A stretch of DNA of 64,000 bases from Candidatus Rifleibacterium sp. (GTDB lineage: Bacteria; Muiribacteriota; Ozemobacteria; Ozemobacterales; Ozemobacteraceae). Below, one piece after another: positions 10,295 to 26,514 of the stretch. The DNA is taken from assembly GCA_035352635.1 (NCBI GenBank), contig DAOPYA010000004.1, forward strand, positions 3,733-67,732, in the 5' to 3' direction. The notes beneath the pieces were generated by a model that saw only the letters and a program-made list of their open reading frames with translations, did no database searches and was not told the DNA's origin. Position numbers and translations under genes: made by a program. How positions within the stretch are numbered: position 1 is the stretch's first letter; every line of letters starts with the position of its first letter.

Positions 10295-10948
10295 TCAGAA
10301 ACCGAAGTTCGCGCCAACAATATAGCGGTGCCGATCATAAACCCGGCTTGGGGTGTACAAACCGAAATCGAGACTGAGAGCTTCATCGAATGCATGCCGC
10401 AAGCCAATGACAAAATCATTGCCGGCATAATCAATAGTAAGTTTTGTATCAACATCAATATTGAGATTGGCACCCATGATGAAAAACACCGGATCGACAT
10501 CGGCGCCCTTCTGGCTGTAACGGCCAAAAGCTGCTTTCTTTTCATCAGGATTCATGGCGATATTGGTGCCAACTCCAAGCACTACCCGATTACCGGGCAT
10601 GCCAGAAAGCAGCATAACTGAGTCCTGGTAGCCTTCGTTCGGGTCAAGAACTGCAGCCACCGCCATATTCTCACGCACTTTGTATTTGCCGGCAAACAGA
10701 GGTTCAGTCTGCTCAGAGCGACCACGAATTGCAAATCTTTTGACAATCGCAACTTCAGAATCGTCTGAGAAAGCGAAAACCCCTTTAAAAGTGGCTTCAT
10801 TGAATTCGGTCTCACCGATCATGTGCACCGCAGCCCGTGCTGCACCGGGGGGCAGAACCTCAAGACCCGGAACAATCATCGTGCCGCTCAGACCATGTAC
10901 AGTCGCATTGGCAAACACCGGGGTCGCTGATGCAAGGAGCATCAGCAA
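10295..10948 (-). CDS. Small outer-membrane beta-barrel protein (OmpW/OmpA-like size)
   Basis: The ORF track extends it to 11086, overlapping the upstream TPR gene. The more likely start is an internal ATG/TTG giving a signal peptide ...LLMLLASATPVFA. Alternating amphipathic strands and a C-terminal ...GANFGF ending in Phe are typical of OMPs. The exact start is uncertain. Confidence 0.45.
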   Translation of the reverse strand: MLMLLASATPVFANATVHGLSGTMIVPGLEVLPPGAARAAVHMIGETEFNEATFKGVFAFSDDSEVAIVKRFAIRGRSEQTEPLFAGKYKVRENMAVAAVLDPNEGYQDSVMLLSGMPGNRVVLGVGTNIAMNPDEKKAAFGRYSQKGADVDPVFFIMGANLNIDVDTKLTIDYAGNDFVIGLRHAFDEALSLDFGLYTPSRVYDRHRYIVGANFGF

Positions 10949-10982
10949 ACAGCATGCAACAAAAAAGCCCGAAACCGACCCG

Positions 10983-12185
10983 TCAGTAACCCTCGATTTC
11001 CTGGAGTTTCTGCCGGATATTGTCGGCTTCACTATGATTGGGAAATTTTCGGAGAAATTCCTCATAGGAGGCTCGGGCCTTGTCATATTCTTTCAGTTCC
11101 TTTTCATAGAGTTCGCCTTTGCGCAGGAAGGCATCTGCTGATACATCGGCATCGGGGAACTTTTCGGTTACCGAATTATAATAATCAATGGCTTTTTCAA
11201 CATTCTCGGTACTCTTACGATAGCGAATCTTACCATCGATAACCTGAGTCTTCATTGAGTCCATGTCTTCTTCGTAGATGCGACCCAGGCGATAAACCAG
11301 ATCTTCGTTACCCTGCGCGTCAGGGTAACGCTGCATCATTTCTTCGAGGGCCTTGGCAGCGCCTTCATAATCTTTTTCTTTTTCTTCGAGCATGCCGATG
11401 AGCTTCCGGTAACCAGAGATCGCATCATCTGAATCGGTGCTTCCCTGAATCGCTTTTCGGTAGGCGGCAGCCGCATCCTTGAAGTTGCCGGCCTCAGCCT
11501 GCATATCGCCAAGATCCATGTTGGCTTTAACTTCCTGAGTGTTATCAGCATCGGCGGCAATGTTGGCCTGGGCTGCGATTGCGCCTTCCTGGGCAGAGGT
11601 GCCAATAGAGAGTTTTTTCATTTTTTCCTGGGCCGCCGGTACGAATGTGCTGTAACCGTAATCGGTAACAATCTTTTTGTAATTGGTAGCGGCCTGGTCG
11701 TACATTCCCATGGCTTCCTGGCAGGTGGCCAGGTTGTAATAAACCTTGTCTATGGCCAGAAAAGCCGGGTGCTCTTCAATAATTTTGTTATAGATATCAA
11801 CGGCCATAACATAATTTTTGATTCTTTCTTCGTAAATTCTTCCAAGGTCATACAGCGTTTTAGGCAATTCGGGGCCGCTCACCCCACCTGCATTGATGCC
11901 GTTATTGAGCATATCAGCGGCTTCGCTGAAATGAGCCAGAGAATTACTGAGTTCTGCCTCTGCCTGTTTAATGCGGATTTTACCGATTTCTACCATGGCC
12001 GGCGAATGAAACTTGCCGTTGCCAAGCAAAGTTTTAAGCTCTTCAATTGCCTGTTCATAGGCGCCCTGCGCCAGTGATTGCATGGCCTTTTGATATTCTG
12101 GAGTTGATTGTATTGGTTGAGCACCAGCTACATTCAACATCAGGGAAAACATAACCAGAACCATGGGAATAATAATACGTTTCAT
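10983..12185 (-). CDS. Periplasmic/lipoprotein-like TPR-repeat protein
   Basis: Signal peptide MKRIIIPMVLVMFSLMLNVAGA. Multiple TPR-like repeats run throughout the 400 aa. Confidence 0.7.
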   Translation of the reverse strand: MKRIIIPMVLVMFSLMLNVAGAQPIQSTPEYQKAMQSLAQGAYEQAIEELKTLLGNGKFHSPAMVEIGKIRIKQAEAELSNSLAHFSEAADMLNNGINAGGVSGPELPKTLYDLGRIYEERIKNYVMAVDIYNKIIEEHPAFLAIDKVYYNLATCQEAMGMYDQAATNYKKIVTDYGYSTFVPAAQEKMKKLSIGTSAQEGAIAAQANIAADADNTQEVKANMDLGDMQAEAGNFKDAAAAYRKAIQGSTDSDDAISGYRKLIGMLEEKEKDYEGAAKALEEMMQRYPDAQGNEDLVYRLGRIYEEDMDSMKTQVIDGKIRYRKSTENVEKAIDYYNSVTEKFPDADVSADAFLRKGELYEKELKEYDKARASYEEFLRKFPNHSEADNIRQKLQEIEGY

Positions 12186-12281
12186 TTTTTCACCTGAATT
12201 TTTTCAAGATTTATTGTATGACTATACGATGGCATGATAACATATCTGCAAATTCATGTTGAGTGAGATGGCAAATTTGTA

Positions 12282-13163
12282 ATGATTAAAAACCTGTTAA
12301 ATCTGCAAAAAGATTCTGCCGATAGTAATATCACGGACTGTAGCGGATCGTGTAACTACCCGGAGATGGAATTCAAACTTCTGCCGCTTGAAAAAGTCTA
12401 CCCGAACCCGAATCAGCCCCGCAAGATCTTTGAAAAACAGGCATTGGAAGACCTGGCCCAGTCAATACGCGAAAACGGCGTTCTGCAACCAGTTCTGGTC
12501 AGGCAGATCGGCGAGCGCTATCAGATCGTTTCAGGTGAAAGACGCTTTCGGGCAAGCAAAATTGCCGGCATGAACAGCATTCCCGCGGTCATTCGCAAAC
12601 TCGACGAAGAAAAAACGATGCTGGCAGGGCTGATCGAGAATATTCAGCGCCAGGATCTCAACCCGATCGAGGAAGCCCGAACCCTCAGAGACATTCTTCT
12701 GAACTTCGGGCTGACACATGACCAGCTCTCAGAAAAGGTTGGCAGAAGCAGATCAGCGCTCACCAACAGGCTCAGGCTGCTGCAACTTCCCCCTGAAGTT
12801 CAGCTGATGGTAGCCGATGGGCAAATATCGGCCGGGCACGCCAAAATGCTGGCTGGGCTTAAAGAACCCCATGAAGCGCGGCAATGGGCCAAAAAAATCA
12901 TCACCGATCAGCTATCGGTATACGAAACCGAAAAACAGATCGCCCGTGAGAAAACCGAAAATTCCAGTGTCTGTCCGAAGAAAGGCAGATTGTTGATGAA
13001 TTCAGATATGCATGTCAGAGCGGTTGAAGAAAACCTTCAAGAGCTGCTTGGCGCGAAGGTTCGCATTCGTCAGGGCAAAAACAAGGGCCGCATCGAAATT
13101 GAATTTTACGACAGAGACGATCTCGAGAGAGTTGTAGAGTCAATGGTTTCGGTGTGCCTGTAA
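12282..13163 (+). CDS. parB: Chromosome-partitioning protein ParB/Spo0J (orphan, no adjacent parA)
   Basis: ParB box GERRFRASKIAGMNSIPAVIR, an HTH region and a C-terminal dimerisation region. The more likely start is the internal ATG at about 12366 (MEFKLLPLEKVYPNPNQPR). The gene upstream is on the opposite strand, so there is no soj/parA partner in this window. Confidence 0.85.
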   Translation: MIKNLLNLQKDSADSNITDCSGSCNYPEMEFKLLPLEKVYPNPNQPRKIFEKQALEDLAQSIRENGVLQPVLVRQIGERYQIVSGERRFRASKIAGMNSIPAVIRKLDEEKTMLAGLIENIQRQDLNPIEEARTLRDILLNFGLTHDQLSEKVGRSRSALTNRLRLLQLPPEVQLMVADGQISAGHAKMLAGLKEPHEARQWAKKIITDQLSVYETEKQIAREKTENSSVCPKKGRLLMNSDMHVRAVEENLQELLGAKVRIRQGKNKGRIEIEFYDRDDLERVVESMVSVCL

Positions 13164-13185: not shown

Positions 13186-14073
13186 GTGATCATTAATTTC
13201 TGGGGGGTCAGAGGCTCGATTCCTGTCCCTGGCAAAGATACCGTCGAGTTCGGCGGCAACACCACCTGTATCGAAATTCTCACCTCATGCGGGGAGAGAC
13301 TGATCTTTGACGCCGGCACCGGCATCAGAGTCTTAGGCAACTCCCTGATGAAACAAGAATTCGGCGAAGGAAAAGGCATGGCGCATGTTTTCTTCACCCA
13401 CTCCCACTGGGATCACATACAGGGCTTCCCCTTTTTCGCACCCGCCTATGTCGGCAAAAAAGACACCAGGGGCACCCGGGTAGAAGATGCCTGCAATGTT
13501 TTCAACCTCTACGGGGCGACCGACGTTGGCAACCGCATCGAAACTACATTGCGCGGCCAGATGGATAACGTTTATTTTCCTGTCGATCTGAACTACCTGT
13601 CTTCGGTCATTAATTTTAAAACTCTTATCGATAATAAAACCAGAATCGGCAATGCCACGATAACAGCTTTCATGCTGGTGCATCCAAACGGCGTTCTGGG
13701 TTACCGCATCGAAGAAGATGGCAAATCAATAGCAATTGCCACTGACTGCGAGCATCCAACCGACGGTTCGATCGATCAGAATCTCTTGAAACTGGCCAGC
13801 AATGTCGACATTCTCGTCTATGACGGCCAATACACAAGCGAAGAATATACCCCGCATAAATTCAACCTCCCAGGCCCTGGTCGCCAGGGGTTCGGCCATT
13901 CAACCCCCGATGAAGGGATAAGAGCAGCCAAAGCCGCCGGGGCTCGCCGTCTGCTCATCACCCACCACGACCCGCTGCACAATGATGTAAGACTTCGTGA
14001 AATGGAAGCCCGGGCAAAGAATCTTTTTTCAGCCACAGATTTTGCCCGCGAAGGCATGTCGATCGAAATTTAA
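13186..14073 (+). CDS. MBL-fold metallo-hydrolase
   Basis: HxHxDH motif (FFTHSHWDHIQG) and downstream His/Asp ligands. 295 aa. Confidence 0.75.
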   Translation: MIINFWGVRGSIPVPGKDTVEFGGNTTCIEILTSCGERLIFDAGTGIRVLGNSLMKQEFGEGKGMAHVFFTHSHWDHIQGFPFFAPAYVGKKDTRGTRVEDACNVFNLYGATDVGNRIETTLRGQMDNVYFPVDLNYLSSVINFKTLIDNKTRIGNATITAFMLVHPNGVLGYRIEEDGKSIAIATDCEHPTDGSIDQNLLKLASNVDILVYDGQYTSEEYTPHKFNLPGPGRQGFGHSTPDEGIRAAKAAGARRLLITHHDPLHNDVRLREMEARAKNLFSATDFAREGMSIEI

Positions 14074-14112: not shown

Positions 14113-17100
14113 GTGCACAACATGGCACGGGCTTCCTTCACAACTCCAGTCTATTTCTTTACCTCTATTAGAGCAGGTTCCGGCAAGGCTTCGATTGTTG
14201 CGAACCTGTCGATTTTCCTTAACAGCCTATCACAAAAGGTTGCCCTGATTGATCTTGACGGCGAAACACCACTAAAACTCAAGAATACTTTTCCGCAATC
14301 AATCAATCTCCAGGCTTACGCAGACCTTGGTCAACTGGCTCGCTCTGACGAGAACCGCTTTCAGAAAAACTTCTATTTTACCGAAACCAGCCAGATTTCT
14401 TACTTCCCCGCCCAGAAACTTGCTGACCCTGCTTCCCTGTTCACCGACACCTCGCTGCGCGATTTTTTCATTCAGCTTAAAGCAAGCTTTGACCTGGTTA
14501 TCATCAATTTTCCTGCGGGCATCCAGCACTGCCAGAAAACTTCCGAACTCCTTTCCAGAAGCCACTTATGGCGTGGCAGTCGCCCGATTTCCCTTATCGT
14601 TTCGCAATCTGACGAGAAAAGCCTGGTCACCCTTGATAAAATGCTGCAACAGAACCCGGCATTCTCTTATCAACTCCAGGAAAACACCTGCCTGATTTTT
14701 AACAGGGTTCCATCAGCACCTGATGAACAACACCTCGCCGGCACAACCCTCAGCGGGCACGAACTTCGCCAGATTTTTGATCAGCCCAACAGCTATCTGA
14801 TTCCGGTCTGCGAAGAATTCGTGCTGCAAAGGCATCAAAGCGGAGCAACCGTTTTAAAATCGGATTCTCTGATGCACCAGACCATTTCCGGCCTGAACCG
14901 TCTGCTGGTTCACAGTGGCGATAATCCGCTCAAGCAGCTCAGCGCCCGGCCAAACGATTATCAGGCCTGCCTTGACGGCGAACTGCTCGAAAAACTGACG
15001 CCATATCTTGAAAGAATACAACTGGCGGCCGCAGCCCGGCTTTATGTTCACCCGTCTGAGCTTCAGGTCTTTCTCGAAGAAGGGCCAGAGAACTTCCGTA
15101 TCCGACTGAGAATCTCAGGAGTTAACCAACCACTGCTTGGTATCAACACAAGAATCCGCCAGGAACCCCTCTGTCAGCTAGTGCAGCGCAGCTCTCCAGA
15201 TGCTTTTGCTCAGACGGGTCTGACCGACGAGAATTCACCGGTAATACCTGCCGGACGCGTGACAATCTCAGCTATCAGCATGCGACCGGTTTACAAGTTT
15301 CCAGACAATTTCAGCTGCCAGGCAGACCCCAGACTGCACCCACAGCTTGATCTGCTACCCGACAAAGCGCCGAGACCATCGCCAATCCTCTTCAAACAGC
15401 AACTTGATCTGCCCGAGGTACCATCGCTTTCGCACATACTCGGTTTTACCCGCCGACAATATCGACAGTTTCAGTTCACCTCGCTTGAAAAGCATCTCAC
15501 CACCGGCAGTGTTACTCATTTTTTTCTGCCGCCCGAATTCGACCTCAGCTGGTCAGCCACCCCGTTTTTTGACGAAATCTTTGCCTGCAATCTGGCAGCG
15601 TGCCAACGCACAACCCTCAATCACCCGATTGTTTTCGCTCTGGCCGATCAATGGCCCGACCTGCGAAACGCTGCGGCACCACTGCTCTTCGATATCTTCG
15701 CCCGCCACCAGTCGCTATACGCAGTATCAGCTCACCAGATCAGGGAAACCATACCACCGCCGGCCGACTTCGCCAGCGCCAGTCGTCGCTACACCGGAAG
15801 CCTGCTGGAAAGCTCTATTTGGCCAGTGCCATGCCGGTTTCTGGCGCCACAACCTTCGGCATTGCTTCTTAAGAGCGCAGAACTGATAGCCATCATGCCC
15901 TTGTGGGTCGCTGAATCAACAAATGAGCCAGAACCGCAAGAAAGCCTGCGGAATCATTTCAGAATGCATGTTTTGCAGGAATACGAACGTTTCAGCCTTG
16001 ACGTTCCGTTGCCGCGACCTTTTTTTGCCGAACCGAGCGGCAAAGTGCCTTCAATGAGCATGGAATCCTGCGTTTTTTTCTCGCTCCATGCCTGCGAACA
16101 AACAGGTGCGCCAGTTGCTCCGACCCTCTGCGAAAATTTCCGCAGAGCCTTGCGCGAATCGCCTTCACAACTAAGCTTTATGCAGCAATGCTTAAACAAA
16201 AAAGAAGCATGTATTGCCCCACCTGATGTCAGATTCCCTGAAGCCTTTAAATGGGAAGACCTGCTCATGGAGCACGTTTATCAAGACGTCAAACAAATTG
16301 TTACCGGGCGCAGTTTTTTGATCAACCCTGTAAAAGCCCTTTTTTCATTCAAACCCACCCACCCACTCTTCTTCAGGCTCTCATTTAAAGGGTTTCGCCA
16401 GGATGTCATCAACAGTGAACTCCCGGTTCCAAAGGCCGAAGTCAAATTGTCTTTCCGCTCCCCCGCCGCCGCGCTAAAAGTTGTGGCCTTTAAATTTTCA
16501 GCAGGCCCGGCCAGATTGATTGACGATCTTTTGCCCGTTAAATACCGACACCAGAAAGACCTCGGGCACCGCGATGCCTTAGATCAGTCAGTCTACAAGA
16601 GCGACCGGGTAATCGACAGCGCAATAAAAAACCGCAGACTTGCTGCCAGCAAAGGTCGCATGCTGCAGATAAATATTCAGAGCGGTAATCAGCCGGCTTT
16701 TTCAGCCAAAACATCGGCACAGAAACTAAAAACAACGACCACGACAATGAAGTTTGCCCCGATGGTTCTATTAAACAAGGCGATAAACGTTGCGAACATC
16801 GCCAGAGAATGCCAGCTTGACCACCTGCCATCTGATCTATTCGCCAACTACAAGCCATTGCCGACCATTCAGAACGGCAAAGAATTTTCGGCCGCCCATA
16901 ACCGGAAAGTCCAGACAAAATCTCTATTCGCTATTGAACCGGTCGAGTTAACCACAATTTCGACAAGAAGAGATACCCAGAGGTTTTTTGCTTTTCCTGG
17001 AAAAGGGGTCTCGCTGCTGATCACCTATCTGCCAACCATAGCCAGGAGGACATTCAGATTGCCTTCTATCAACGGAAACCACCCCGAATTTGCTATCAAC

Positions 17101-17703
17101 CACGATCAGATTCAGCTGCCCGCTGCCCTTCCCCTGCGCAATCGCCGGGTCGAGTTTCCTGATCTGAACCGGGCGAACGACAAACAATTTTCCCTCAAAA
17201 TCCAGTGTGATATGCATGCCATTATTCACAAGACTGGAGCAATGAATGAAAACATCCTGGAACGAGCCAATCGAAGCCAACGCCCGGCCGAACGGATGGC
17301 CAAAATGCCAATGCGCTACCCGTTAGCGATATCTGCCCAGCGCTCCCTGCGCAGCCTCCCCCTTAAAAAGTCGACTTTTTTTATCAGGTTTCCTGACATT
17401 ATCGAGGTATTTTATGAGCATCTGCGCTGGTCTCTACGTGATGAACGAGTCAGCGGGCTTGCTTTTATTGACCATTTCAAGAATCAGAAAGCTGAAGGGA
17501 AATTGCCGGCCTTTTTAATCAGACAAACCCTGCGCCTGGCCTGCCATGTTGATTTCCGAGAAAGATTAGCCCTTTTCAACCGTTTCGACAAAACCGCCCG
17601 CGAAATTTACCCGATCAGCAATCTCAGATTGCGCGACCTAATGAACCTGGCCAGGCAGACAAACCAGAAATTCAATGAAGTAAACCAGAAGATACGGGCA
17701 TGA
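14113..17703 (+). CDS. Giant protein (1196 aa) with a degenerate N-terminal MinD/ParA-like domain and about 1000 aa of unknown function
   Basis: N-terminal 200 aa align by eye to MinD: VYFFTSIRAGSGKASIVANLSIFL...KVALIDLDGE against IIVVTSGKGGVGKTT...VIDFD; SYFPAQK against LYILPASQ; FDLVIINFPAGIQ against FEFIVCDSPAGIE; LIFNRVP against LLTRYNP. The Walker A is degenerate (IRAGSGKAS). Codon preference matches neighbouring genes. No other frame in the span has a long ORF. Confidence 0.6.
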   Translation: MHNMARASFTTPVYFFTSIRAGSGKASIVANLSIFLNSLSQKVALIDLDGETPLKLKNTFPQSINLQAYADLGQLARSDENRFQKNFYFTETSQISYFPAQKLADPASLFTDTSLRDFFIQLKASFDLVIINFPAGIQHCQKTSELLSRSHLWRGSRPISLIVSQSDEKSLVTLDKMLQQNPAFSYQLQENTCLIFNRVPSAPDEQHLAGTTLSGHELRQIFDQPNSYLIPVCEEFVLQRHQSGATVLKSDSLMHQTISGLNRLLVHSGDNPLKQLSARPNDYQACLDGELLEKLTPYLERIQLAAAARLYVHPSELQVFLEEGPENFRIRLRISGVNQPLLGINTRIRQEPLCQLVQRSSPDAFAQTGLTDENSPVIPAGRVTISAISMRPVYKFPDNFSCQADPRLHPQLDLLPDKAPRPSPILFKQQLDLPEVPSLSHILGFTRRQYRQFQFTSLEKHLTTGSVTHFFLPPEFDLSWSATPFFDEIFACNLAACQRTTLNHPIVFALADQWPDLRNAAAPLLFDIFARHQSLYAVSAHQIRETIPPPADFASASRRYTGSLLESSIWPVPCRFLAPQPSALLLKSAELIAIMPLWVAESTNEPEPQESLRNHFRMHVLQEYERFSLDVPLPRPFFAEPSGKVPSMSMESCVFFSLHACEQTGAPVAPTLCENFRRALRESPSQLSFMQQCLNKKEACIAPPDVRFPEAFKWEDLLMEHVYQDVKQIVTGRSFLINPVKALFSFKPTHPLFFRLSFKGFRQDVINSELPVPKAEVKLSFRSPAAALKVVAFKFSAGPARLIDDLLPVKYRHQKDLGHRDALDQSVYKSDRVIDSAIKNRRLAASKGRMLQINIQSGNQPAFSAKTSAQKLKTTTTTMKFAPMVLLNKAINVANIARECQLDHLPSDLFANYKPLPTIQNGKEFSAAHNRKVQTKSLFAIEPVELTTISTRRDTQRFFAFPGKGVSLLITYLPTIARRTFRLPSINGNHPEFAINHDQIQLPAALPLRNRRVEFPDLNRANDKQFSLKIQCDMHAIIHKTGAMNENILERANRSQRPAERMAKMPMRYPLAISAQRSLRSLPLKKSTFFIRFPDIIEVFYEHLRWSLRDERVSGLAFIDHFKNQKAEGKLPAFLIRQTLRLACHVDFRERLALFNRFDKTAREIYPISNLRLRDLMNLARQTNQKFNEVNQKIRA

Positions 17704-20700
17704 CCCTGAAGATTCCTTTCAGATACTTTCTTCCCGTCCTCGATGCTCCGGCAAAAAGACCGGGAAAAAAGGTTTTTGTAACCAGAAGGCCGATAAGCCT
17801 TGCCGGCAAGCCTTTGCTGGCCGAGAAACACCTGCCGGTGCAACCATCTTTTTCTCTTGCAGCGCGCAAATGCTACGCCACCACTGTTGCAGCCCTTTTT
17901 AAGCAGGCAAAAAGCATTGCGCGAAAAACCAGATTTAAACCAGATTTCAGCTTTATAAAATACGAACCGCTGGTTTTTGAAAATGCCAGGTCAGGTTTTT
18001 TTTCTACCCCAGGGTTGCCTGACCCTGAGCGATGGGCCGGGCATATTATCGAACCAGCGACCGGCCTCAAACATTCCGGCCAGTCAGAAAGATTGGCCAT
18101 CAGCGTTGATACTAATCCGCACCTGGCATTTACCATTGCAGATCATCCTGACCCCGAAAACATCCTGTCTGGCTTTCTTCAACGCTTTTCAGAGCCGGTC
18201 ATGTTGCCTTCGCCCAACGAAAAAATTGGTCTTTCCGGTCAGGAAACCTTTATTGAACCGGTTACTGCCACGCCTTGCCCGGCCCGGCTCATAAATCTGG
18301 CCATTTTTGAATCACGCAAAAAATTTATCTGCCGGCGCCCCAGCCTTAATCAGACTTTTTCGTTTGCCGGGGCTGAGCACAACTTTACTCTTTTCTGGCC
18401 AGAAGTCTCTTTCGCACTCGCACCGGCCAATCAAAAGCCGCTCAAAGACCTTACAGAACCGGATTACAGCCTTTTTCGTTCGCAAAAATTCATTGGTTTT
18501 GGCTTTTTTCTGAAGCTTGATCGGGCAAAGAATGGCCCTGAACGCGAAATTCTTGCCAATTTTCTTCTCGAAAGCAAGATTGTCTTTTCGCCGGTCTGCG
18601 ACAACCTCATTCATTCAAGCATTGGAACCCCCCACCAGAGCAGTTGTCTGCAAGATTCACGTGGTAACCTTACCCCGAAATTTAAATCAGAGGCATCCAG
18701 CATTCCTTTAAGGGGCCTTCCCAGCTATCTCCCGGCTGACATCAAGATATCTGGAGCCAGAAAGGCCACCATGAGCCTTTGCCTGCCACCGGCACGACCC
18801 GCCAATCTTTGCCGAACCCATGCCCGCCACGGAAACTTTCAGATTGCCGACCATGCGTGCCGTCTAAAACTCAGGCTTAAACTGCGGCGCATGAACCCGT
18901 CAGCCCCCGATACCCGCCTGAAAGTGATGGTTCCTGCCGTATCGCTAAGGCCAGCCACCCGGCCCACAGGCTTTTTACAGGCCAGTTACAAAGAAATCCG
19001 CTCAAAAAACCCGATCTGCAAAAGTTTTGAGCACTCTGATGCAAGCATTGGCCGACCGCCGGCCAATGATTTTCACCAGAAGCGCAGTCAGTTTTATATT
19101 CGCGCCGCAAGGCACGCGCAATATACTCTGCGGCTTCTGAAAAACATATTTACCGCTAATCAGCACCGGGCAAGCAATCAGGTCATGCTGAACCACATGT
19201 TAACAGCAATGCCCGAGCTAACATCAACCGCAAAGAAACTTCGCCAGCCCGCTGCTTTCAACCCATTTTCCACAAAGCTTTCTTTGACTGCCAGCCCCGC
19301 CAGCAAAATTGTCAGCTCAACCGTTGCCCTTGCAGAAAGAAAACTGCCACTGAGTCTGCTCGCAGGCCGAGCTTGTTTTAATGATATCTGCACTCCTGAA
19401 CAACCCAAAAAAATTGCCACCGTAACCACTCAAAGCGCCAACCTTCATCATGAAACCCATGCAAAGCGCACCCGAACCCTGCGAATGCTGCGCTTCAAAC
19501 TGCATCCAGTCAGCACCGCCAACCTCTCATACCGGAATAGCCCGGCACGGTCGATAGGCTGTGCGCGAATTTCGGCAGCGATTATTTCGCGGCGTGCCCA
19601 GAAGGTCAATCTGCCGGCCGGCGAAACCATGGCCATTAAATTGCGCGACCGACAACTCCAGGCCAGGCACCGCCTCCGTTTACGCAAGGTCGCCCTAAAA
19701 ATTGATCTTCCAGGGCAGATTAAACCGAACATGACCCTGCTTCTCGGCATCGAAGGCACAGATGCCCCGACGACCCTCTGCCAGAAACATTTTGTTTACC
19801 CCAGCATCTGGAAACGAAAACAGCGATCGTTCAACTGCCGACTTTCTCTGCTTCCCCATCCGTTCGGCTTCCCTGACTTTTGTTTTTCAGAAAATGTATT
19901 TTCATGCCTGGTAAAGCCAGTGGCTTTAACTATTCCGCTACCGGCCAGGCAAAAAGCAATGCTGACCGGTAGTTTTGTCATAAAACGCGAAAAGATTTTT
20001 TTGCCGCCGCTAAGCATGAAAGCGCCACGCCGCCTGCTCTACAGCCTCAGCATGCCGCATGAGCTTAAAGAGATTTTCCGCGCCCCTCGGCTTATTACAA
20101 CTACACAGCTGCAGCCCGCACCTGTTATTGGCTCTTTCACACACACCTGGCTGTGCAACCCTAATCCCCGAAAGATTTCTGCAGATACCGGCATGCGTAT
20201 GACCAGAACCCGGCGGCATAAAAGCAGCAGTTTCGTAATGCCTGATCGAGTAATTAAGAGCCATACCTTTCTGGAAACAGCCGAAGCGCCTTCCTGGCTC
20301 GAATTACCTCTGATAAAACGAATGTTGCTACGGGCCAGACGCTTTGCCACAACCCGACAATCAGCAAATTTTTGCCCTGTCAACGGGCCAACCAGTCAGC
20401 GGTTTTTGCCAGCCATTGCATTGCCTGCCATTGCCAAACCATTGCAAAGACTCAATCTCGCAGGGTTCAGTCTTTTCACACCGGTGGCCCGACATTTTCT
20501 GCATTGCTGGCCGCTTGTTGACCGGCTTCGTTGCCCGGTCGATGACGGTAACCGCATGCGTTTGCGTTCCTATCGATTCCCATGGCATCCCGAAATGCCA
20601 CCGACAGGGCAACACAGCCTCAGCTTCAGCGACCGGCCGAGCTCCAACCAGACCCACAGCCTTGATTTTGCTGATGAAGTCAGAGCTGCATCATTTTTCT

Positions 20701-21632
20701 TCCCATGGATTGACCAGATAAGCATAGCAAGTGCCTACCGGAACACTGACTCTGCAAAGGGTTCAAAACCGGTTACCACCGTCTTAAAAGAAGTTAATTC
20801 TGCCCAAGCAACGTTTCTTGGCCGCCCGATCGGCATATTTGCCGGCATGCAACTCAATATTCCAAGCTTCAATCAATTCATTGACCCAGCAAATTTCTTC
20901 TGCTGCAACGAAAAACCACCGGCACCAATGCAAAAAACACGACGGCACTACAGTTTAAAGCATGCAACCCGGCGAATTCAGCCCGAAAACGTGATACTCA
21001 ATTACTCAGAATACAGCCTGCAAAGTGCACCCGGTGCAACCTTACCAATGGATCCCCTGCATTGGATAATTCTGATGCGCAGTTTTATCAGTGCCAGGCC
21101 ACCGGCCCTCGATTACCAGTTTGCGGCCACCTGCGCAACAAAAACTTCTTCGCCAACCCATGGCAAACCCTTTAATACCAGTTTCCCGGCATCTTTTAAC
21201 CATGTCGGGGATGCCCCCCTTACAGGTCATCTCAATCAGGATGCGCAGCAGACCATGCCTTTGTGCCTTGCCAGCCTGACCGCGAATTTTTATGCCCTGC
21301 CGCTAAGATTAACCAGGTCTGAGATTGCAGCACCTGAAATACTTGACGAAAAATTTGCCCAACTGGTTCACAAAGCGGTTTTTTCGGCACACCATGAAAC
21401 GGGAACTCTTTTTGAATTGCATCGGAAAAGCATGTTGCTGCCGGCAGCCACAGATCATTATACGTTGGCAACGCTCGCATGCGCCACGCACATCCCCGCC
21501 TTTAAAATTTCTGCCCGGCGTGCCCCGTTTATTCCAGATGCGCGTCTCAATCTAGCGCCCGCTGGCTACAAACATGCCAGTCTGCCCGACTGGATTGACA
21601 GCCACCACGAAAGACCTGGCCTCAATCAATGA
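17700..21632 (+). CDS. Giant protein (1310 aa), extremely basic Arg/Pro/Ser/Thr/Ala-rich, unknown function
   Basis: The ATG overlaps the upstream TGA (ATGA), suggesting translational coupling with the 1196-aa ORF. A 3.9-kb frame with no stop cannot plausibly arise by chance at this GC. Codon preference (ccg, gcc, acc, ctg) matches the genome. No recognisable domain. Very few acidic residues. No long repeats. Confidence 0.55.
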   Translation: MTLKIPFRYFLPVLDAPAKRPGKKVFVTRRPISLAGKPLLAEKHLPVQPSFSLAARKCYATTVAALFKQAKSIARKTRFKPDFSFIKYEPLVFENARSGFFSTPGLPDPERWAGHIIEPATGLKHSGQSERLAISVDTNPHLAFTIADHPDPENILSGFLQRFSEPVMLPSPNEKIGLSGQETFIEPVTATPCPARLINLAIFESRKKFICRRPSLNQTFSFAGAEHNFTLFWPEVSFALAPANQKPLKDLTEPDYSLFRSQKFIGFGFFLKLDRAKNGPEREILANFLLESKIVFSPVCDNLIHSSIGTPHQSSCLQDSRGNLTPKFKSEASSIPLRGLPSYLPADIKISGARKATMSLCLPPARPANLCRTHARHGNFQIADHACRLKLRLKLRRMNPSAPDTRLKVMVPAVSLRPATRPTGFLQASYKEIRSKNPICKSFEHSDASIGRPPANDFHQKRSQFYIRAARHAQYTLRLLKNIFTANQHRASNQVMLNHMLTAMPELTSTAKKLRQPAAFNPFSTKLSLTASPASKIVSSTVALAERKLPLSLLAGRACFNDICTPEQPKKIATVTTQSANLHHETHAKRTRTLRMLRFKLHPVSTANLSYRNSPARSIGCARISAAIISRRAQKVNLPAGETMAIKLRDRQLQARHRLRLRKVALKIDLPGQIKPNMTLLLGIEGTDAPTTLCQKHFVYPSIWKRKQRSFNCRLSLLPHPFGFPDFCFSENVFSCLVKPVALTIPLPARQKAMLTGSFVIKREKIFLPPLSMKAPRRLLYSLSMPHELKEIFRAPRLITTTQLQPAPVIGSFTHTWLCNPNPRKISADTGMRMTRTRRHKSSSFVMPDRVIKSHTFLETAEAPSWLELPLIKRMLLRARRFATTRQSANFCPVNGPTSQRFLPAIALPAIAKPLQRLNLAGFSLFTPVARHFLHCWPLVDRLRCPVDDGNRMRLRSYRFPWHPEMPPTGQHSLSFSDRPSSNQTHSLDFADEVRAASFFFPWIDQISIASAYRNTDSAKGSKPVTTVLKEVNSAQATFLGRPIGIFAGMQLNIPSFNQFIDPANFFCCNEKPPAPMQKTRRHYSLKHATRRIQPENVILNYSEYSLQSAPGATLPMDPLHWIILMRSFISARPPALDYQFAATCATKTSSPTHGKPFNTSFPASFNHVGDAPLTGHLNQDAQQTMPLCLASLTANFYALPLRLTRSEIAAPEILDEKFAQLVHKAVFSAHHETGTLFELHRKSMLLPAATDHYTLATLACATHIPAFKISARRAPFIPDARLNLAPAGYKHASLPDWIDSHHERPGLNQ

Positions 21633-21882: not shown

Positions 21883-21911
21883 TTGACTTGCATGGTTAAA
21901 GGCATTAGAAT
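21883..21911 (+). promoter_or_regulatory. Sigma70-like promoter for the PP2C/coiled-coil/TPR operon
   Basis: TTGACT, a 17-nt spacer, then TAGAAT. A GGGAGA Shine-Dalgarno follows 7 nt before the ATG at 21940. It lies in a 300-nt intergenic region after the giant ORFs. Confidence 0.4.
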
Positions 21912-21939: not shown

Positions 21940-22734
21940 ATGAGTTTTTATACCCTTAGTGATAAAGGCAAAGTTCGCCCGAACAATGAAGACTATGCCG
22001 AGAGTATGTCTTTGATCTTGTGCGGGCCAGCAGGTAACCAGATTGAACTGACGGCCCTGATCCTGGCCGATGGAATGGGTGGCGCAGCGGCCGGTGAATT
22101 TGCTTCGATGCTGGCCGTGCAGACAGTCAAAGAGAATCTGGTTCGCAACCTCTTTGAAAAACAGCCCGAAGATCTTTTGAATACAGACAAAACGCTGCTT
22201 CTTGAAGAATGGTTTCAGGGCGCCAACCTGGCAATCTTTAAAGAAGCCAGTCGGAATGCCGAAAAAGAAGGCATGGGCACCACAATTGTCGGGGGGATCA
22301 TCTACCGCAATGGCATGGCCCTCGCTCATGTCGGCGACAGTCGGGGTTACCGGTTTCGCGAAGCGGCCCTGACGCCGATCACCAAAGACCACTCACTGGT
22401 CCAGGAATTTATCGACATGGGTCGGATAACCCCCGATGAAGCCTTTGTGCACCCTCAACGCAACGTTATAACCCGCGCCCTCGGGATTGGCGACTCGGTC
22501 AAGGTTGACCGCAAGAACCTGCCCCTGGAATACGGCGATCTGATTCTCTTCTGCACTGATGGCCTGTGCGGCTACGTCGAGCATAAAGACCTTGAAGAGA
22601 TTGTTAACAGCGAGTACAAACCTGATGGCACCGACCTGAAAAAGCTTGCTGAACTCCTGGTTAAAGGGGCCTGTTTGAACGGCGGCGGTGATAACATAAG
22701 CGTCTGCCTGTATCAGCACCTTCAGAAGTTTTGA
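21940..22734 (+). CDS. PP2C-family Ser/Thr protein phosphatase
   Basis: The metal-binding motifs ADGMGGAAAGEFAS and DGLCGYV are present. The size (264 aa) is typical of Stp1/PrpC-type phosphatases. Confidence 0.75.
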   Translation: MSFYTLSDKGKVRPNNEDYAESMSLILCGPAGNQIELTALILADGMGGAAAGEFASMLAVQTVKENLVRNLFEKQPEDLLNTDKTLLLEEWFQGANLAIFKEASRNAEKEGMGTTIVGGIIYRNGMALAHVGDSRGYRFREAALTPITKDHSLVQEFIDMGRITPDEAFVHPQRNVITRALGIGDSVKVDRKNLPLEYGDLILFCTDGLCGYVEHKDLEEIVNSEYKPDGTDLKKLAELLVKGACLNGGGDNISVCLYQHLQKF

Positions 22735-22738
22735 ATAA

Positions 22739-24355
22739 ATGAAGCAACAGCTCGACAATTCCGAACCAGGCAGCCTGCCACAAAAACTTGAGGCTGTCAG
22801 GGATTACTTGCGTCACCTGCTGAAACTGGCAAGGGTTCTGCCAGAAACAGAAGAAAACAGTCAGTTGCTGAATAGCCTTGCCAGGCTTGGCGAGATTGAC
22901 TTTGCCACCCTGATCGACGAATCCGAAACTCTGATGCGGGTGGCTTCAAGCCCCTCTGACCTCGAAAAATTCCGCCAGGAAATCGATGTCAGGGAACAAA
23001 AAATATATGAATTCAAAATGAGTCTTGCCGACTCAGTTATCGATTTAAAAAATGCCCAGAAGGCTTCAATTACTGCGGGCGAACAAAGTGCTGCCCTGAA
23101 CGCCCAGGTCACGCAGATGCAGTTGCATACTAAAGAACTTGCCCTGCGCCTGGCCTCAGCCACTTCAAGCCTCGAAAAACGCGAGAGTGAACTCGAAGTC
23201 GCCCACCGCGAACTCGATGAACTGCGCAGCCGTTCATACCAGTTAAAAAGTCAGAATGTTGAATACGAGCGCCATCTGAAGTTCTCGGCCGAACAGGTCG
23301 AACAGGCTGAAAAAGAGCAGAAATCGGCATTTGCGATGCGCGAAAAGGCCGAAAAAGATCTCGAACATGTAATGACCAGCAACCGCGAAATGAAAAACTC
23401 GCTCGAAAACCTCGAAATGCGCGAACGCGAACTGGTAGAAACTATCGATGTTCTGCAAAAAGAGCGCAACCATTTGCAGAACCGCCTGAGCAGCCTTTTA
23501 ACTGGCTTCAACCGCACGGTTTCGCACAGTCAGTCCACTGGTTATGCCACACAAAACGCTGTGCTCGAACCGGCAATCCTCAACCCTTACCTGCCGTTCT
23601 GCTTTCCAGAGCGCTTACCCGCCGCAATTAAATTTCGCCGCGAAATAGATACAAGTTTTCCGGCTTCTTATTCGCGCAGGGTGCCCAAAGCCCCGCCGGT
23701 ATTTATAAGCCTTGCCAAACCTGCTTACCCTGGCAACGAGGCAATCAGATCGCAAAACCGTCCGCCACGCATCAAGCCGACACCCAAAAAAGAACTTGCC
23801 CTGGCGATGTTGCCATCAAGGCCAAGAAGGGTATTGATGCCCTACCAGGCCGCTTACAGCATCGATCAACTTGCCAGAGTTTCTGTTGAGTTTAAACAGG
23901 GTCAGCCGGCCAGGGTTGTCGCACTTAAGCAGATCTGGTGGCAGAAGACTGCGAAGCTTTATGGCATGAATATGAAAGCCGCGCATAATCATGCCTTTGC
24001 CATCATCAGTAACTCTTTCGATCTCTATTTACAGTTTTTGATTTCTACAATTGTCAGACAGAACGATATCCCCTCTGAATCAAGACTGGAACACATCTTG
24101 AACGGGAACAAAAAGAATCGTTCTGTCGAAAAGCTTGATCTGGCAATTAATTTTCAGGAAACACTTGCGTTCAGACACCGGTTGCAACTAAAATCCACTA
24201 AGCTTGAAGCACCCGGGGCAACTCTGCAGCAAAGCTTTAAACGCGGCAACAAGCTGAAATCAGTTCTTGAGACGTTCGGCAACAAGATCAGTTCAATAGT
24301 GAACCAATTAGAAAGTATCCCGAATTCGCGATCAGACAATGGCGAAAAACAATAA
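22739..24355 (+). CDS. Coiled-coil protein (N-terminal 250 aa heptad-rich, C-terminal Pro-rich region)
   Basis: Long Glu/Leu/Lys/Arg/Gln-rich segments (ELEVAHRELDELRSRSYQLKSQNVEYERHLKFSAEQVEQAEKEQK). It starts 5 nt after the PP2C stop. Confidence 0.55.
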   Translation: MKQQLDNSEPGSLPQKLEAVRDYLRHLLKLARVLPETEENSQLLNSLARLGEIDFATLIDESETLMRVASSPSDLEKFRQEIDVREQKIYEFKMSLADSVIDLKNAQKASITAGEQSAALNAQVTQMQLHTKELALRLASATSSLEKRESELEVAHRELDELRSRSYQLKSQNVEYERHLKFSAEQVEQAEKEQKSAFAMREKAEKDLEHVMTSNREMKNSLENLEMRERELVETIDVLQKERNHLQNRLSSLLTGFNRTVSHSQSTGYATQNAVLEPAILNPYLPFCFPERLPAAIKFRREIDTSFPASYSRRVPKAPPVFISLAKPAYPGNEAIRSQNRPPRIKPTPKKELALAMLPSRPRRVLMPYQAAYSIDQLARVSVEFKQGQPARVVALKQIWWQKTAKLYGMNMKAAHNHAFAIISNSFDLYLQFLISTIVRQNDIPSESRLEHILNGNKKNRSVEKLDLAINFQETLAFRHRLQLKSTKLEAPGATLQQSFKRGNKLKSVLETFGNKISSIVNQLESIPNSRSDNGEKQ

Positions 24356-24375: not shown

Positions 24376-26514
24376 ATGAAACGCACTTATCTGCAGGATG
24401 AAGCCAATACCCACTATAATCTGGGTATAGCCTATTACACCAAAGGGCAATATGAACAGGCGATCAACGAGTGGGTTCAGTCACTGATCAAAAACCCCCA
24501 GAACAGCGAGGCGAGGTTCAAACTCGGCGTCGCCTACTATCAGCTGAATCGCATCGATGAGGCCCTCAAGGAATGGGAAATCGCGGTTTCACTTGATCCG
24601 CAGAACTACGAAGTGCTGCATAACCTTGGTATCGCCTATTACAACAAGGGCGAAGACATGCGGGCCATCGACTACTGGGAAAAATGCCTCGAAGTTCGCG
24701 GCCACGACCCCGAAATTCATTTCAAGCTCGGCATTGCCTACTATAACCTCGGCAAAGAAGACCAGGCCATCTCACTCTGGGAAAAAGCCGCCAACCTCAA
24801 CCCCGAAGACTCAGATATATTCTTCAGACTGGGGGTTGCCTATTACAACAAGGGCCTCGACGACAAGTCGGTTATTGCCTTCTCAAAAGCCATTGAACTG
24901 AACCCGAAGAATTCAGAATCACATAATAATCTGGCAATCGTTTTTTACCGCCTCGAAATGTATCAGCAGGCCATCGAAGAATGGAAAAAGGCGCTGTCGC
25001 TCAACCCCCGCCAGCCCGAAATCTTTAACAACCTTGGAAACGCCTACAGCAAGCTGAACCAGCACCGCGAAGCCATCGAGACCTGGCAAAAAATCCTCGA
25101 TATCACTCCCGACAGTTCAGAAGTGTATTTCAAGCTCGGATCCGCCTATGGCAAACTCGACGACCTGACCCGGGCCATCAGCAGCTGGGAAAAATGCATT
25201 TCTTTGAACCCGAACGATGTTGAAGCACACTTTAACCTCGGTGTGGCTCAGTATAACTCGGGCAATTTTCAGAAGGCGATCACCTACTGGAACACCGTCA
25301 GAGAAAAGCGCAGCGAAGACGCTGATATCTGCGAAAAAATCGGTAACGCCTACTGCGGTCTCGAAGACTTTGCCGAAGCCGCCAAGTTCTGGAACCGCGC
25401 CATTTCTTACGTCAGCGATGACCCGCAGCTGCACCACAAGCTTGGCATCGCTTATTCGAAGCTCAACAAAACCCAGGAAGCTATTTTCCAGTGGCAGAAA
25501 GCCATCGAACTCGACACCGACCATTTCGAAGCCCACCACAACCTGGGTATCGCCTTCTACAATCTGCAGCGCTTCGACGAAGCACTCACCGAGTGGGAAA
25601 AATCGAAAAACCTGAACCCGACCGACCCCGATCTGTTTTTTAAGCTCGGCCACGCCTACCGCCAGAAACGCCGCCTCGACAACGCGATCTTCAACTGGAA
25701 AAAGGCAATTGAACTTGACCCCAACAACCCAAATACCTATTTCGTGCTTGGCAACGCTTTTGACGAAAAAGGCCTGCTCGATGATGCGATTCTTTCGTGG
25801 CGTAAGGTTATCGAACTGGCTCCCAACGATGTTGATGCGCACAACAACCTTGGCATCGCATATTTCCAGAAGAATATGTTCGATCAGGCCATCTCAGAAT
25901 GGGAAGACGCCATCAGAATCACCCCCGAAAACGGTGAACTCTACAACAAGCTTGGCATCGCATACATCAAGATGGAACTGTTCGACAAGGCTGTAGAATG
26001 CTGGGAAAAGGCCCTCAAATACAAACCTGAAGATTCAGATATCCTCTCTAACCTTGCGACTGCCTACCACAACCGCGAAATGTATGACAAGGCCATCGAA
26101 ATCTGGAAACGCGTCATCAAATACAACCCCCAGGATTCAGAAGCACGCAACAAGCTTGGTATCGCCTATTACAACAAGGGTATGTATGATCAGGCCATTG
26201 AACTCTGGAAAAAAGCCATCGAACTCAACCCCAAAGACGCTGCCGCTTATTACAATATCGGCACCGAAGAGTTCGAAAAAGGCCGTATCAACGAAGCAAT
26301 CACCGCTTACATGAAAGTGCTCGAGATTGACCCGAAGTTCGTGCAGGTCTATTACAATCTGGCGATCATCTATGCTCGCAAACGCCAGTTCAGAGACGCT
26401 ATCGACACCGCCAGAAGATTTCTGCACACCAACCCGACCGGCGTCGAAGCCGACAACCTCAAAACCCTCATCGAACAGTGCGAAAAAGAAATGGAACAGG
26501 AAGCCGAAGTCTGA
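24376..26514 (+). CDS. TPR-repeat protein with about 21 highly regular tandem TPR units
   Basis: The 712-aa ORF is made of near-consensus 34-aa units (AIxxWxKAIELNPxxxEAxxNLGIAYYNxGxYDx) repeated head to tail across the whole protein. Confidence 0.85.
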   Translation: MKRTYLQDEANTHYNLGIAYYTKGQYEQAINEWVQSLIKNPQNSEARFKLGVAYYQLNRIDEALKEWEIAVSLDPQNYEVLHNLGIAYYNKGEDMRAIDYWEKCLEVRGHDPEIHFKLGIAYYNLGKEDQAISLWEKAANLNPEDSDIFFRLGVAYYNKGLDDKSVIAFSKAIELNPKNSESHNNLAIVFYRLEMYQQAIEEWKKALSLNPRQPEIFNNLGNAYSKLNQHREAIETWQKILDITPDSSEVYFKLGSAYGKLDDLTRAISSWEKCISLNPNDVEAHFNLGVAQYNSGNFQKAITYWNTVREKRSEDADICEKIGNAYCGLEDFAEAAKFWNRAISYVSDDPQLHHKLGIAYSKLNKTQEAIFQWQKAIELDTDHFEAHHNLGIAFYNLQRFDEALTEWEKSKNLNPTDPDLFFKLGHAYRQKRRLDNAIFNWKKAIELDPNNPNTYFVLGNAFDEKGLLDDAILSWRKVIELAPNDVDAHNNLGIAYFQKNMFDQAISEWEDAIRITPENGELYNKLGIAYIKMELFDKAVECWEKALKYKPEDSDILSNLATAYHNREMYDKAIEIWKRVIKYNPQDSEARNKLGIAYYNKGMYDQAIELWKKAIELNPKDAAAYYNIGTEEFEKGRINEAITAYMKVLEIDPKFVQVYYNLAIIYARKRQFRDAIDTARRFLHTNPTGVEADNLKTLIEQCEKEMEQEAEV

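Follow-up and report, generated by a model that had tools for sequence, protein, structure and literature searches.

A pair of adjoining giant genes, here called ORF1 and ORF2 (ORF, open reading frame), was studied in a 64,000-nucleotide stretch of DNA, hereafter the window, from Candidatus Rifleibacterium sp. (GenBank assembly GCA_035352635.1, contig DAOPYA010000004.1, positions 3,733 to 67,732 of the forward strand). They are two genuine, separate genes, and sequence comparison indicates a module of two genes that is inherited vertically and seen only in Riflebacteria. Chromosomes, plasmids, division sites, carboxysomes and chemoreceptor arrays are brought to their places in the cell by ParA/MinD-type ATPases that work with small, rapidly evolving partners. 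What appears to be new here is a ParA/MinD-like module of the positioning type with a giant extension, catalytic motifs that are altered throughout the family, a polycationic partner of 1310 residues, and a large part that is assigned to no family. Tentatively, we regard the pair as a lineage-specific ATPase-plus-partner (A/B) module of the ParA/MinD type that is tied to chromosome or cell organisation.

Two coupled genes

ORF1 occupies positions 14113..17703 of the plus strand and encodes 1196 amino acids when read from a GTG start. The ATG at 14122, which gives a protein of 1193 amino acids, is the likelier start because orthologues open with M-x-R-A-S-F and gene callers give 1193 amino acids. 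ORF2 follows at 17700..21632 (plus strand) with an ATG start and 1310 amino acids, and the ATGA stop/start overlap at 17700..17703 (plus strand) implies translational coupling. This is the arrangement described in an earlier interpretation of the window made from the letters alone (the sequence-only reading). Its statement that no other frame in this span exceeds about 120 amino acids is slightly off, since a 179-residue ORF with a TTG start lies in another plus frame at 15347..15886. The chance of finding ORFs as long as these is (61/64)^1300, or about e^-62.

The sequence-only reading had also offered a frameshift as an alternative explanation. Two ORFs are present in all 17 complete loci, which are independent assemblies from different Riflebacteria species. 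Thirteen of these share the ATGA overlap. The junction of the other four, which are gut or rumen-clade loci, consists of a stop codon, a spacer of 8-9 nt and an ATG, and ORF2 shares the frame of ORF1 in two of these; the frame relation thus varies between clades. A single gene of about 2500 amino acids, whether interrupted by a frameshift in sequencing or assembly or read as one through programmed frameshifting, has a practically negligible probability: the 1-nt frame offset at the overlap and a database protein (P0085) that runs from the C-terminus of ORF1 into the N-terminus of ORF2 would speak for it, but two ORFs recur in every complete locus and no frameshift could fuse the genes at the two spacer junctions where they share a frame. 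For practical purposes the frameshift reading is excluded.

Programmed frameshifting is ruled out separately by the inconstant frame relation among clades. P0085 was rejected as a true fusion as well. Its source contig (L026, ENA ERZ22147072 ctg12486l) has both genes in pieces of 318, 748, 811, 260 and 57 amino acids, which is typical of an indel-ridden long-read assembly, and the protein is an assembly artefact. That one such piece joins the end of ORF1 to the beginning of ORF2 is a warning about database 'fusion' proteins in general. Paralogy of ORF1 and ORF2 was also considered and discarded (hhalign probability 0.1%).

Distribution and selection

A word-indexed search over 5.8 billion proteins gave 39 relatives of ORF1, all of 1083-1258 amino acids except two fragments and most of 1156-1205, and 13 relatives of ORF2, of 1291-1318 amino acids. 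Repeating the search with a profile of the ORF2 alignment returned the same 13. All named relatives belong to Candidatus Riflebacteria, Rifleibacterium or Ozemobacteraceae, save one on a contig that is labelled Erysipelotrichia and shows the same synteny. ORF2 itself is listed at NCBI as a 'hypothetical protein' of a metagenome-assembled genome (MAG) of Candidatus Rifleibacterium sp. When 1.84 billion representative proteins were searched exhaustively with an HMMER profile of ORF2 residues 1-1135, only 42 matched; the full-length ones have 1283-1336 amino acids, and there was no second architecture.

Scanning one genome per GTDB species supplied 21 loci. In the 17 complete loci ORF1 has 1182-1208 amino acids, except for one locus where only a 958-residue ORF was read, and ORF2 has 1281-1333. 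The protein lengths vary by only about 1% despite identities of 20-35%. ORF2 is the faster-evolving member of the pair, with 21-35% identity to its orthologues as compared to 37-60% for ORF1.

Three loci (L013, L019 and L021) bear the label Erysipelotrichia or Candidatus Avigastranaerophilus, although they show the synteny that is specific to Riflebacteria (L021 for the ORF1-ORF2 pair only). The tetratricopeptide repeat (TPR) protein encoded downstream of the pair in L019 is 92% identical to that of the window. The contigs or MAGs concerned are probably mis-binned or mislabelled.

Ratios of nonsynonymous to synonymous substitution (dN/dS) were estimated by the Nei-Gojobori method from five species pairs. 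Values were 0.08-0.13 for ORF1 and 0.10-0.24 for ORF2, and every 200-codon window that could be estimated remained below 0.32. The low ratios along both genes show that ORF1 and ORF2 are translated and under purifying selection from end to end. Selection is more relaxed than on the neighbouring genes, which have dN/dS values of 0.01-0.05.

The pair differs from its surroundings in base composition. GC skew is -0.15 to -0.20 in the region of the two genes, compared to about -0.05 elsewhere in the window, and is near 0 in the two genes directly upstream, parB and a gene for a metallo-beta-lactamase (MBL)-fold hydrolase. At codon position 1 the skew is -0.10 in ORF1 and -0.14 in ORF2, whereas most of the neighbours have +0.2 to +0.37. 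All 17 orthologous pairs have a C-rich coding strand (skew -0.07 to -0.21), whatever the GC content of the genome (31-52%). Amino acid composition accounts for both the negative skew and the odd codon-position pattern: P, L, R, S, A and F are abundant in the proteins, and G, D, E and V are scarce. The sequence-only reading had stated that codon preference matches that of housekeeping genes. This is correct in that the same codons are preferred, but the bias is weaker, with a synonymous codon score of 0.06 for the pair vs 0.12 +/- 0.033 for the 39 other genes of the window, a few of which are similarly weak. The weakest codon bias of the window is that of a gene for an Ig-like protein at 58079..61948 (minus strand).

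Atypical codon-position composition, strongly negative skew, weak codon bias and the lack of annotation could suggest that the ORFs are spurious or decaying, or that they are part of a horizontally acquired or defence island. We consider this practically excluded. Selection acts in the annotated frames, synteny and protein lengths are conserved throughout the phylum, the GC content equals that of the genome, the preferred codons are the same, and the negative skew is a family trait that follows from amino acid composition. Searches of PADLOC and PHROGs for defence or phage membership gave no match for ORF1 or ORF2, and the genomic context is fixed across the phylum instead of patchy. The unchanged GC content and the conserved synteny also bear out the earlier impression that there is no sign of horizontal transfer.

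The N-terminal domain of ORF1

An AlphaFold2 model of ORF1 from a 38-sequence alignment and its comparison by Foldseek identify residues 10-335 (14140..15117, plus strand) as a predicted MinD/BcsQ/ParA-type (SIMIBI) NTPase fold. The NTPase fold itself comprises residues 10-270, and residues 285-335 form a helix/beta-hairpin add-on. Block means of the predicted local distance difference test (pLDDT) are mostly 70-89 over residues 10-335, with dips at residues around 80, 205 and 275. Foldseek against the PDB ranked BcsQ (6yay/6yb5) highest, with E 1.4e-8; other matches were MinD (4v03/3q9l), ParA (3ea0), Soj (6iub), FlhG and McdA, with E-values from 1e-8 to 1e-5 and template modelling (TM) scores, normalized to the target, of 0.6-0.7. 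By sequence, archaeal MinD 1ion comes first among the PDB entries (phmmer E 2.7e-4). ORF1 stays below the curated cut-offs for Pfam CbiA (20.1 bits vs 25.4), Pfam BcsQ (19.4 vs 21.3) and NCBIfam MinD (25.3 vs 212.9), and such sub-threshold matches to CbiA, BcsQ and MinD recur in 35, 30 and 27 of the 38 family members.

The nucleotide-binding motifs are non-canonical. The Walker A sequence S-I-R-A-G-S-G-K-A-S (14164..14193, plus strand) conforms to a family pattern S-[IVM]-[RK]-A-G-S-G-K-[AST]-[ST], where the canonical motif is K-G-G-x-G-K-[ST]. In an alignment with MinD an arginine stands opposite the signature lysine and an alanine opposite glycine, and the residue after the P-loop lysine is Ala, Ser or Thr. 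The arginine is found in nearly all members that cover the motif; two have lysine. In the Walker B region, D-L-V-I-I-N-F-P-A-G (14491..14520, plus strand), Asn132 is invariant in the 38 sequences and lies opposite the Walker B aspartate of the 'IDCPAG' of MinD, with 'PAG' as in MinD. The D-x-D of switch I is retained, as Asp47 and Asp49 ('IDLD') are invariant and align to 'VDGD' of MinD. The MinD/ParA-like N-terminus with a degenerate Walker A motif that had been noticed in the sequence-only reading is thus real with respect to both fold and motif.

Loss of the signature lysine alone does not exclude activity, because type 1 McdA lacks it and is an active ParA-type ATPase (PMC7182216). In ORF1 the Mg-ligand position and the Walker B acid are lost together, which suggests that hydrolysis is slow or absent, although the domain probably binds nucleotide and forms dimers. 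Since the signature lysine, the Walker B aspartate and the curated thresholds all fail, we call ORF1 MinD/ParA-like and not a member of the family.

Regions outside described families

Residues 336-1172 of ORF1 and the whole of ORF2 are without a match in Pfam, NCBIfam, PADLOC, PHROGs and the PDB. Pfam searches with all family members (24 of ORF2 and 38 of ORF1) gave nothing beyond the ParA/MinD domain, and sequence-profile searches of the PDB with both families returned P-loop matches only, all of them marginal. About 2200 of the 2500 residues therefore lie outside every described family, in agreement with the sequence-only reading, and these regions may represent novel folds or non-globular scaffolds. 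That reading had also stated that both proteins lack repeats and transmembrane segments. No tandem or internal repeats were found in ORF1 or ORF2, and no transmembrane-like segment was present, the highest 19-residue Kyte-Doolittle mean being 1.57 in a stretch that contains charged residues. Comparison of hydrophobic-moment periodicity with block shuffles gave no signal, nor did it in known globular controls.

In ORF1, residues 336-530 (15118..15702, plus strand) contain short conserved motifs and no predicted fold (pLDDT 27-39). The motifs are KPVYxFDDxF, PSPILFK, LPEIPSLSHVLG, THFFLPPE and DxFAR; invariant columns in this part are F396, D398, F400, S423, P424, P437, L439, L443, G444, V467, P473, F476 and D527, and residues 468-475 form a conservation island. 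The following part, residues 531-1164 (15703..17604, plus strand), evolves fast with a dN/dS of 0.07-0.27 in 200-codon windows, is conserved in length and likewise has no predicted fold. Over residues 336-1172 pLDDT is 22-40 nearly throughout, with short islands of 50-60. The protein becomes basic toward its C-terminus (net charge +36 over residues 700-1196) and ends in a conserved element, (R/K)-DLMNLARQT-xx-KF-x-E (17605..17697, plus strand), which is predicted to be helical at residues 1173-1195 with block-mean pLDDT of about 49-73. R1163, D1175 and A1180 are nearly invariant in this region, some 850 residues away from the NTPase-like domain.

ORF2 is polycationic, as had been noted earlier, with an isoelectric point of 10.3 and a net charge of +90. 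Its sequence contains much P, A, L, R and F but little G, D, E and V, and across orthologues the net charge ranges from +26 to +118. The basic N-terminus, residues 1-60 (17700..17879, plus strand), is the best-conserved part: mean column conservation is 0.58 over residues 1-50 vs 0.22-0.53 in other 50-residue blocks. It carries the motif LPV(L/F)D-P ... (T)RR-x-S-x-x-G(K/R) ... AEK-x-x-P-x-x-P ... KCY, in which D15, P17, R29, R30, P49, K57 and C58 are invariant, and the N-terminal 72 residues have a net charge of +3 to +12 in 24 orthologues. Three further conserved segments occur downstream, all on the plus strand: the invariant motif LLPHPFGFPxF at residues 715-728 (19842..19883); FLPPLSMK-x-PRRLL at residues 766-781 (19995..20042), with S772, P776 and L780 invariant and K774 nearly so; and R-x-R-S-(F/Y)-RFPW-x-PE at residues 954-965 (20559..20594), with R956, F960, P961 and P964 invariant. 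AlphaFold2 on residues 1-1200 found no fold (pLDDT 28.8 throughout), but the alignments are shallow, with 38 sequences for ORF1 and 7 for ORF2, and the failure for ORF2 is weak evidence.

The putative parB operon and its surroundings

Synteny was examined by tblastn of 16 window proteins against all loci. The order of a TPR gene on the minus strand followed by parB, the MBL gene, ORF1 and ORF2 is invariant. The first gene of this conserved block, parB (12282..13163, plus strand), encodes a bona fide ParB of 293 amino acids (Pfam ParB_N, HTH_ParB and ParB_C, E 1e-34; NCBIfam parB_part, 188 bits) with the box for binding of cytidine triphosphate, GERRxRA, present as GERRFRA. The MBL gene (13186..14073, plus strand) always lies between parB and ORF1. 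Its product, 295 amino acids long (Pfam Lactamase_B_2, E 3e-21), is distantly similar to RNase Z and cyclic-nucleotide phosphodiesterases, with an NCBIfam RNase_Z score of 69 bits that is far under the cut-off.

The parB gene was described as an orphan in the sequence-only reading, and this holds over a wider range: no parA is present in the window or in flanks of up to 10 kb at 25 related loci. A tblastn search of the same range with B. subtilis Soj (E <= 0.01) found no Soj-like gene, and the KGGxGK[ST] motif occurs in no long ORF of the window. The N-termini of Riflebacteria ParB proteins read M(L/I/F)KN(L/S)LN..., or MNN(I/L)N... in the gut clade, with at most one lysine and none in the gut clade; the usual basic peptide of the LG(R/K)GL type was not found in them. 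An apparent lack of this peptide would fit the absence of an adjacent canonical ParA. A search for parS (TGTTNCACGTGAAACA) gave a single match with three mismatches at 12527..12542 (plus strand). It is probably coincidental, as one or more matches of this quality turn up in 24% of shuffles and it overlies the GERR-box codons (V-S-G-E-R) of parB. The parS core GTTNCACGTGNAAC is present neither in the window nor in 26 loci.

A candidate promoter of parB-MBL-ORF1-ORF2 lies at 12211..12244 (plus strand) and consists of CATGATAACATA at 12233..12244, with TG-n-TAACAT, preceded by TTGTAT. CATGATAACATA is a 12-mer that resembles an extended -10 element and is unique in the window, where shuffles predict none; it is kept about 40-50 nt 5' of parB in most Riflebacteria loci outside the gut clade. 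Intergenic gaps of 22 and 48 nt together with this conserved element suggest that the four genes form one transcription unit with CATGATAACATA as putative promoter. Farther upstream on the minus strand are ScpB, ScpA and TrpS, with ScpA and ScpB about 6-9 kb away.

Downstream of ORF2, a promoter-like TTGACT-17-TAGAAT (21883..21911, plus strand, 10 of 12 matches) precedes the gene of a PP2C Ser/Thr phosphatase. For the promoter-led PP2C operon proposed earlier, the site exists and is a candidate, but regional counts of promoter-like sequences do not exceed the shuffle expectation. The phosphatase (21940..22734, plus strand, 264 amino acids) belongs to the Stp1/IreP family (NCBIfam NF033484, 230.5 bits vs a cut-off of 230; Pfam PP2C_2), and its gene follows ORF2 in nearly all loci. 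Next is a coiled-coil-rich protein of 538 amino acids (22739..24355, plus strand) with weak coiled-coil matches of SMC/crescentin type, which is encoded in most loci and missing from the rumen clade (L018, L020). The third protein, TPR712 (24376..26514, plus strand, Pfam TPR families), has exactly 712 amino acids wherever it was read from end to end on the plus strand (L001-L025). It is 91-99% identical phylum-wide, with a dN/dS of about 0.007 at dS 0.3-0.75. Being far more constrained than ParB or PP2C, it suggests a hub with many simultaneous binding constraints. In gut locus L019 the PP2C-TPR block is inverted and still adjoins ORF2.

Three genes of conserved synteny have no Pfam or NCBIfam match. 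They lie at 8675..9613 (minus strand, 312 amino acids), 10295..11086 (minus strand, 263) and 26733..28808 (plus strand, 691). A second ParA-like fusion in the window is a T2SSE-type secretion ATPase of 706 amino acids (52090..54213, minus strand, E 1.6e-55) with a weak CbiA/ParA-like stretch at residues 28-60. The Ig-like protein at 58079..61948 (Big_5/fn3/PKD, 1289 amino acids) is encoded beside a protein with a prepilin N-methylation motif (61972..63453, minus strand); a second N_methyl protein is encoded at 29199..29816 (plus strand). Rfam and tRNA scans of the window gave no match.

Possible roles of the pair

ORF2 can be compared with what is known of partners of ParA/MinD ATPases. Their genes adjoin that of the ATPase, they are much less conserved than it, and they act by means of a short basic peptide located at the N-terminus or close to it (PMC13170346). 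ORF2 shows all three properties, although this is resemblance and not proof. Because of this fit, an A/B module of the ParA-ParB, MinD-MinE, McdA-McdB or PomZ-PomX type is the most economical model, and we give it somewhat less than an even chance. In such a module the NTPase domain of ORF1 would be a switch, and ORF1 as a whole a switch plus scaffold. The faster-evolving ORF2 would dock on this domain with its basic N-terminal peptide, and the basic regions of both proteins (the C-terminal part of ORF1 and ORF2) could tether the complex to a polyanionic surface, for which the nucleoid is the most plausible candidate. The assembly might then organise or position the ParB/origin complex, replacing the canonical Soj/ParA that was not found beside parB, and would act with ParB and possibly SMC-ScpAB in chromosome organisation. 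The chromosome reading is drawn from context, namely the parB operon, ScpAB nearby and the positive charge. Nucleotide binding, contact between ORF1 and ORF2, DNA binding and the link to chromosome segregation are what we infer. Of the arrangement that the sequence-only reading had imagined, a MinD-like domain on a giant scaffold with a polycationic partner, the domain, the long region and the coupled partner are present, but the scaffold is not demonstrated.

Several points weigh against this model. With its altered Walker A and Walker B motifs the domain may have stopped cycling, and the analogy with partners that activate their ATPase would then be weaker. The ORF1 domain is nearer to MinD and BcsQ than to Soj, the gene order parB-MBL-ORF1-ORF2 is not the canonical parA-parB, and a parS-like site is lacking in the window and in 26 loci. 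No DNA-binding domain was detectable, the net charge per residue is moderate (+0.07), and about 2100 residues have no AlphaFold2 model. Adjacency to parB may also reflect co-regulation instead of a shared mechanism.

A second possibility is that the same A/B architecture serves another cargo. A MinD/BcsQ-like switch with a giant scaffold would then organise a pole, a division site or an envelope machine, functionally like HubP, PopZ, PomXYZ or BcsQ, and work with the Stp1 phosphatase, the coiled-coil protein and the TPR protein, while parB would adjoin only because origins are anchored or co-regulated there. We regard this as fairly unlikely. The nearest matches in sequence and structure being MinD and BcsQ and not Soj, the lack of parS nearby and the conserved C-terminal helix of ORF1 argue for it, as does the PP2C-TPR712 block, which stays beside ORF2 even when inverted (L019), with the coiled-coil protein usually present. 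However, no MinC/MinE, bcs or flagellar genes were found in the window or flanks, and there are no transmembrane or clearly amphipathic membrane segments. Moreover, parB and the MBL gene are the only invariant neighbours, and the rumen clade does without the coiled-coil gene.

The third possibility concerns the roughly 2100 unassigned residues. These might be largely non-globular, multivalent scaffolds that form a condensate-like hub, with the motifs PHPFGFP, FLPPLSMK, RFPW and FFLPPE read by TPR712 under regulation by Ser/Thr phosphorylation, and with a MinD-like domain that merely controls assembly. The low pLDDT over nearly all of residues 336-1172 of ORF1 and all 1200 modelled residues of ORF2 is consistent with this, given that the MinD-like domain was modelled confidently in the same run at the same alignment depth. 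Conservation that is clustered in short P/F-rich islands, the extreme constraint on TPR712 and the adjoining gene for an Stp1-type phosphatase also point in this direction. On the other hand, the composition is not that of classical disordered proteins (F 6-9%, L about 11%, I 5%, sequence entropy 4.1 bits), and TOP-IDP and charge-hydropathy values of ORF1 and ORF2 are within the range of other window proteins. Lengths that are held to about 1% at 20-35% identity are unusual for disordered regions, and the shallow alignments, only 7 sequences for ORF2, make the AlphaFold2 failure weak evidence. On balance such a hub appears improbable.

Comparison with known systems

ORF1 resembles MinD in its SIMIBI alpha/beta fold, the D-x-D of switch I and the 'PAG' after Walker B; MinD is its best PDB sequence match (E 2.7e-4) and is among the top structural matches. 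It differs from MinD by Arg for the signature Lys, Ala for Gly, A/S/T at the Mg-ligand position and Asn for the Walker B Asp, by an extension of about 860 residues, and by scoring 25 bits where TIGR01968 requires 213. No minC or minE lies beside ORF1 in the loci, and no Min families occurred among the Pfam matches of flanking genes. BcsQ is the top Foldseek match, and its Pfam family was matched in 30 of 38 members, but identity is about 20% and BcsQ has no long C-terminal extension like that of ORF1. None of the bcs families bcsR, bcsA, bcsB and bcsE was found in the window or in the flanks of any locus.

With ParA/Soj-ParB-parS the pair shares its location in an operon with a bona fide ParB, the nearby ScpAB, and an arrangement in which a ParA-superfamily domain precedes a partner that is less conserved and basic at its N-terminus. 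The differences are the order parB-MBL-A-B, the MinD/BcsQ-like domain, a ParB that seems to lack the basic peptide, the absence of a local parS, and size, as ParA and ParB are 4-5 times smaller than ORF1 and ORF2. Hubs of the HubP and PopZ type are very large scaffolds, low in homology and restricted to certain lineages, to which ParA-family ATPases and ParB/origin complexes are recruited. Unlike ORF1 and ORF2, which are basic and lack a transmembrane segment, these hubs are acidic and/or anchored in the membrane, and they are proteins distinct from the ATPase, whereas ORF1 contains the ATPase-like domain itself.

PomXYZ and McdAB also combine a ParA/MinD-type ATPase with one or more poorly conserved partners encoded beside it (PMC13170346, PMC10307791, PMC7182216), and their partners act via a basic N-terminal peptide and build large assemblies (PMC13170346, PMC10307791). 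ORF2 has no homology to PomX, PomY or McdB. Furthermore, in Riflebacteria it is the ATPase-like protein that bears a giant extension, and the partner has 1310 amino acids without predicted coiled coils.

Significance for Riflebacteria

No paper describing these genes was found in the literature on Riflebacteria and Ozemobacter. Riflebacteria are reported to have the most novel gene families per genome and 26 synapomorphic unknown families (PMC10849945). The ORF1-ORF2 pair may be among these lineage-defining families, and the three syntenic genes without a match fit the reported wealth of unknown families in the phylum. The organisms that carry the pair are uncultured, and the proposed function is read from its context. 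Even without a function, the pair is conserved, selected and lineage-restricted, which makes it a well-delimited target for structure determination and heterologous localisation.

The A/B reading can be extended to a stronger form, which we consider doubtful. In this form, two giant proteins, one of about 1200 residues and one of about 1300, took the place of the canonical ParA of ParB throughout the phylum. The first would be a MinD-like switch/scaffold with impaired hydrolysis and the second a polycationic partner, and together they would form an unprecedented nucleoid-bound or cytoskeleton-like structure that organises the chromosome or the cell. If this replacement took place, it would involve about 2100 residues of protein architecture that have no relative outside the family among 1.84 billion representative sequences, and a function would be assigned to two of the largest phylum-specific 'dark' genes. 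If the pair indeed substitutes for ParA, it would demonstrate that a switch that does not cycle and a giant scaffold can form the core of a rebuilt ParABS paradigm.

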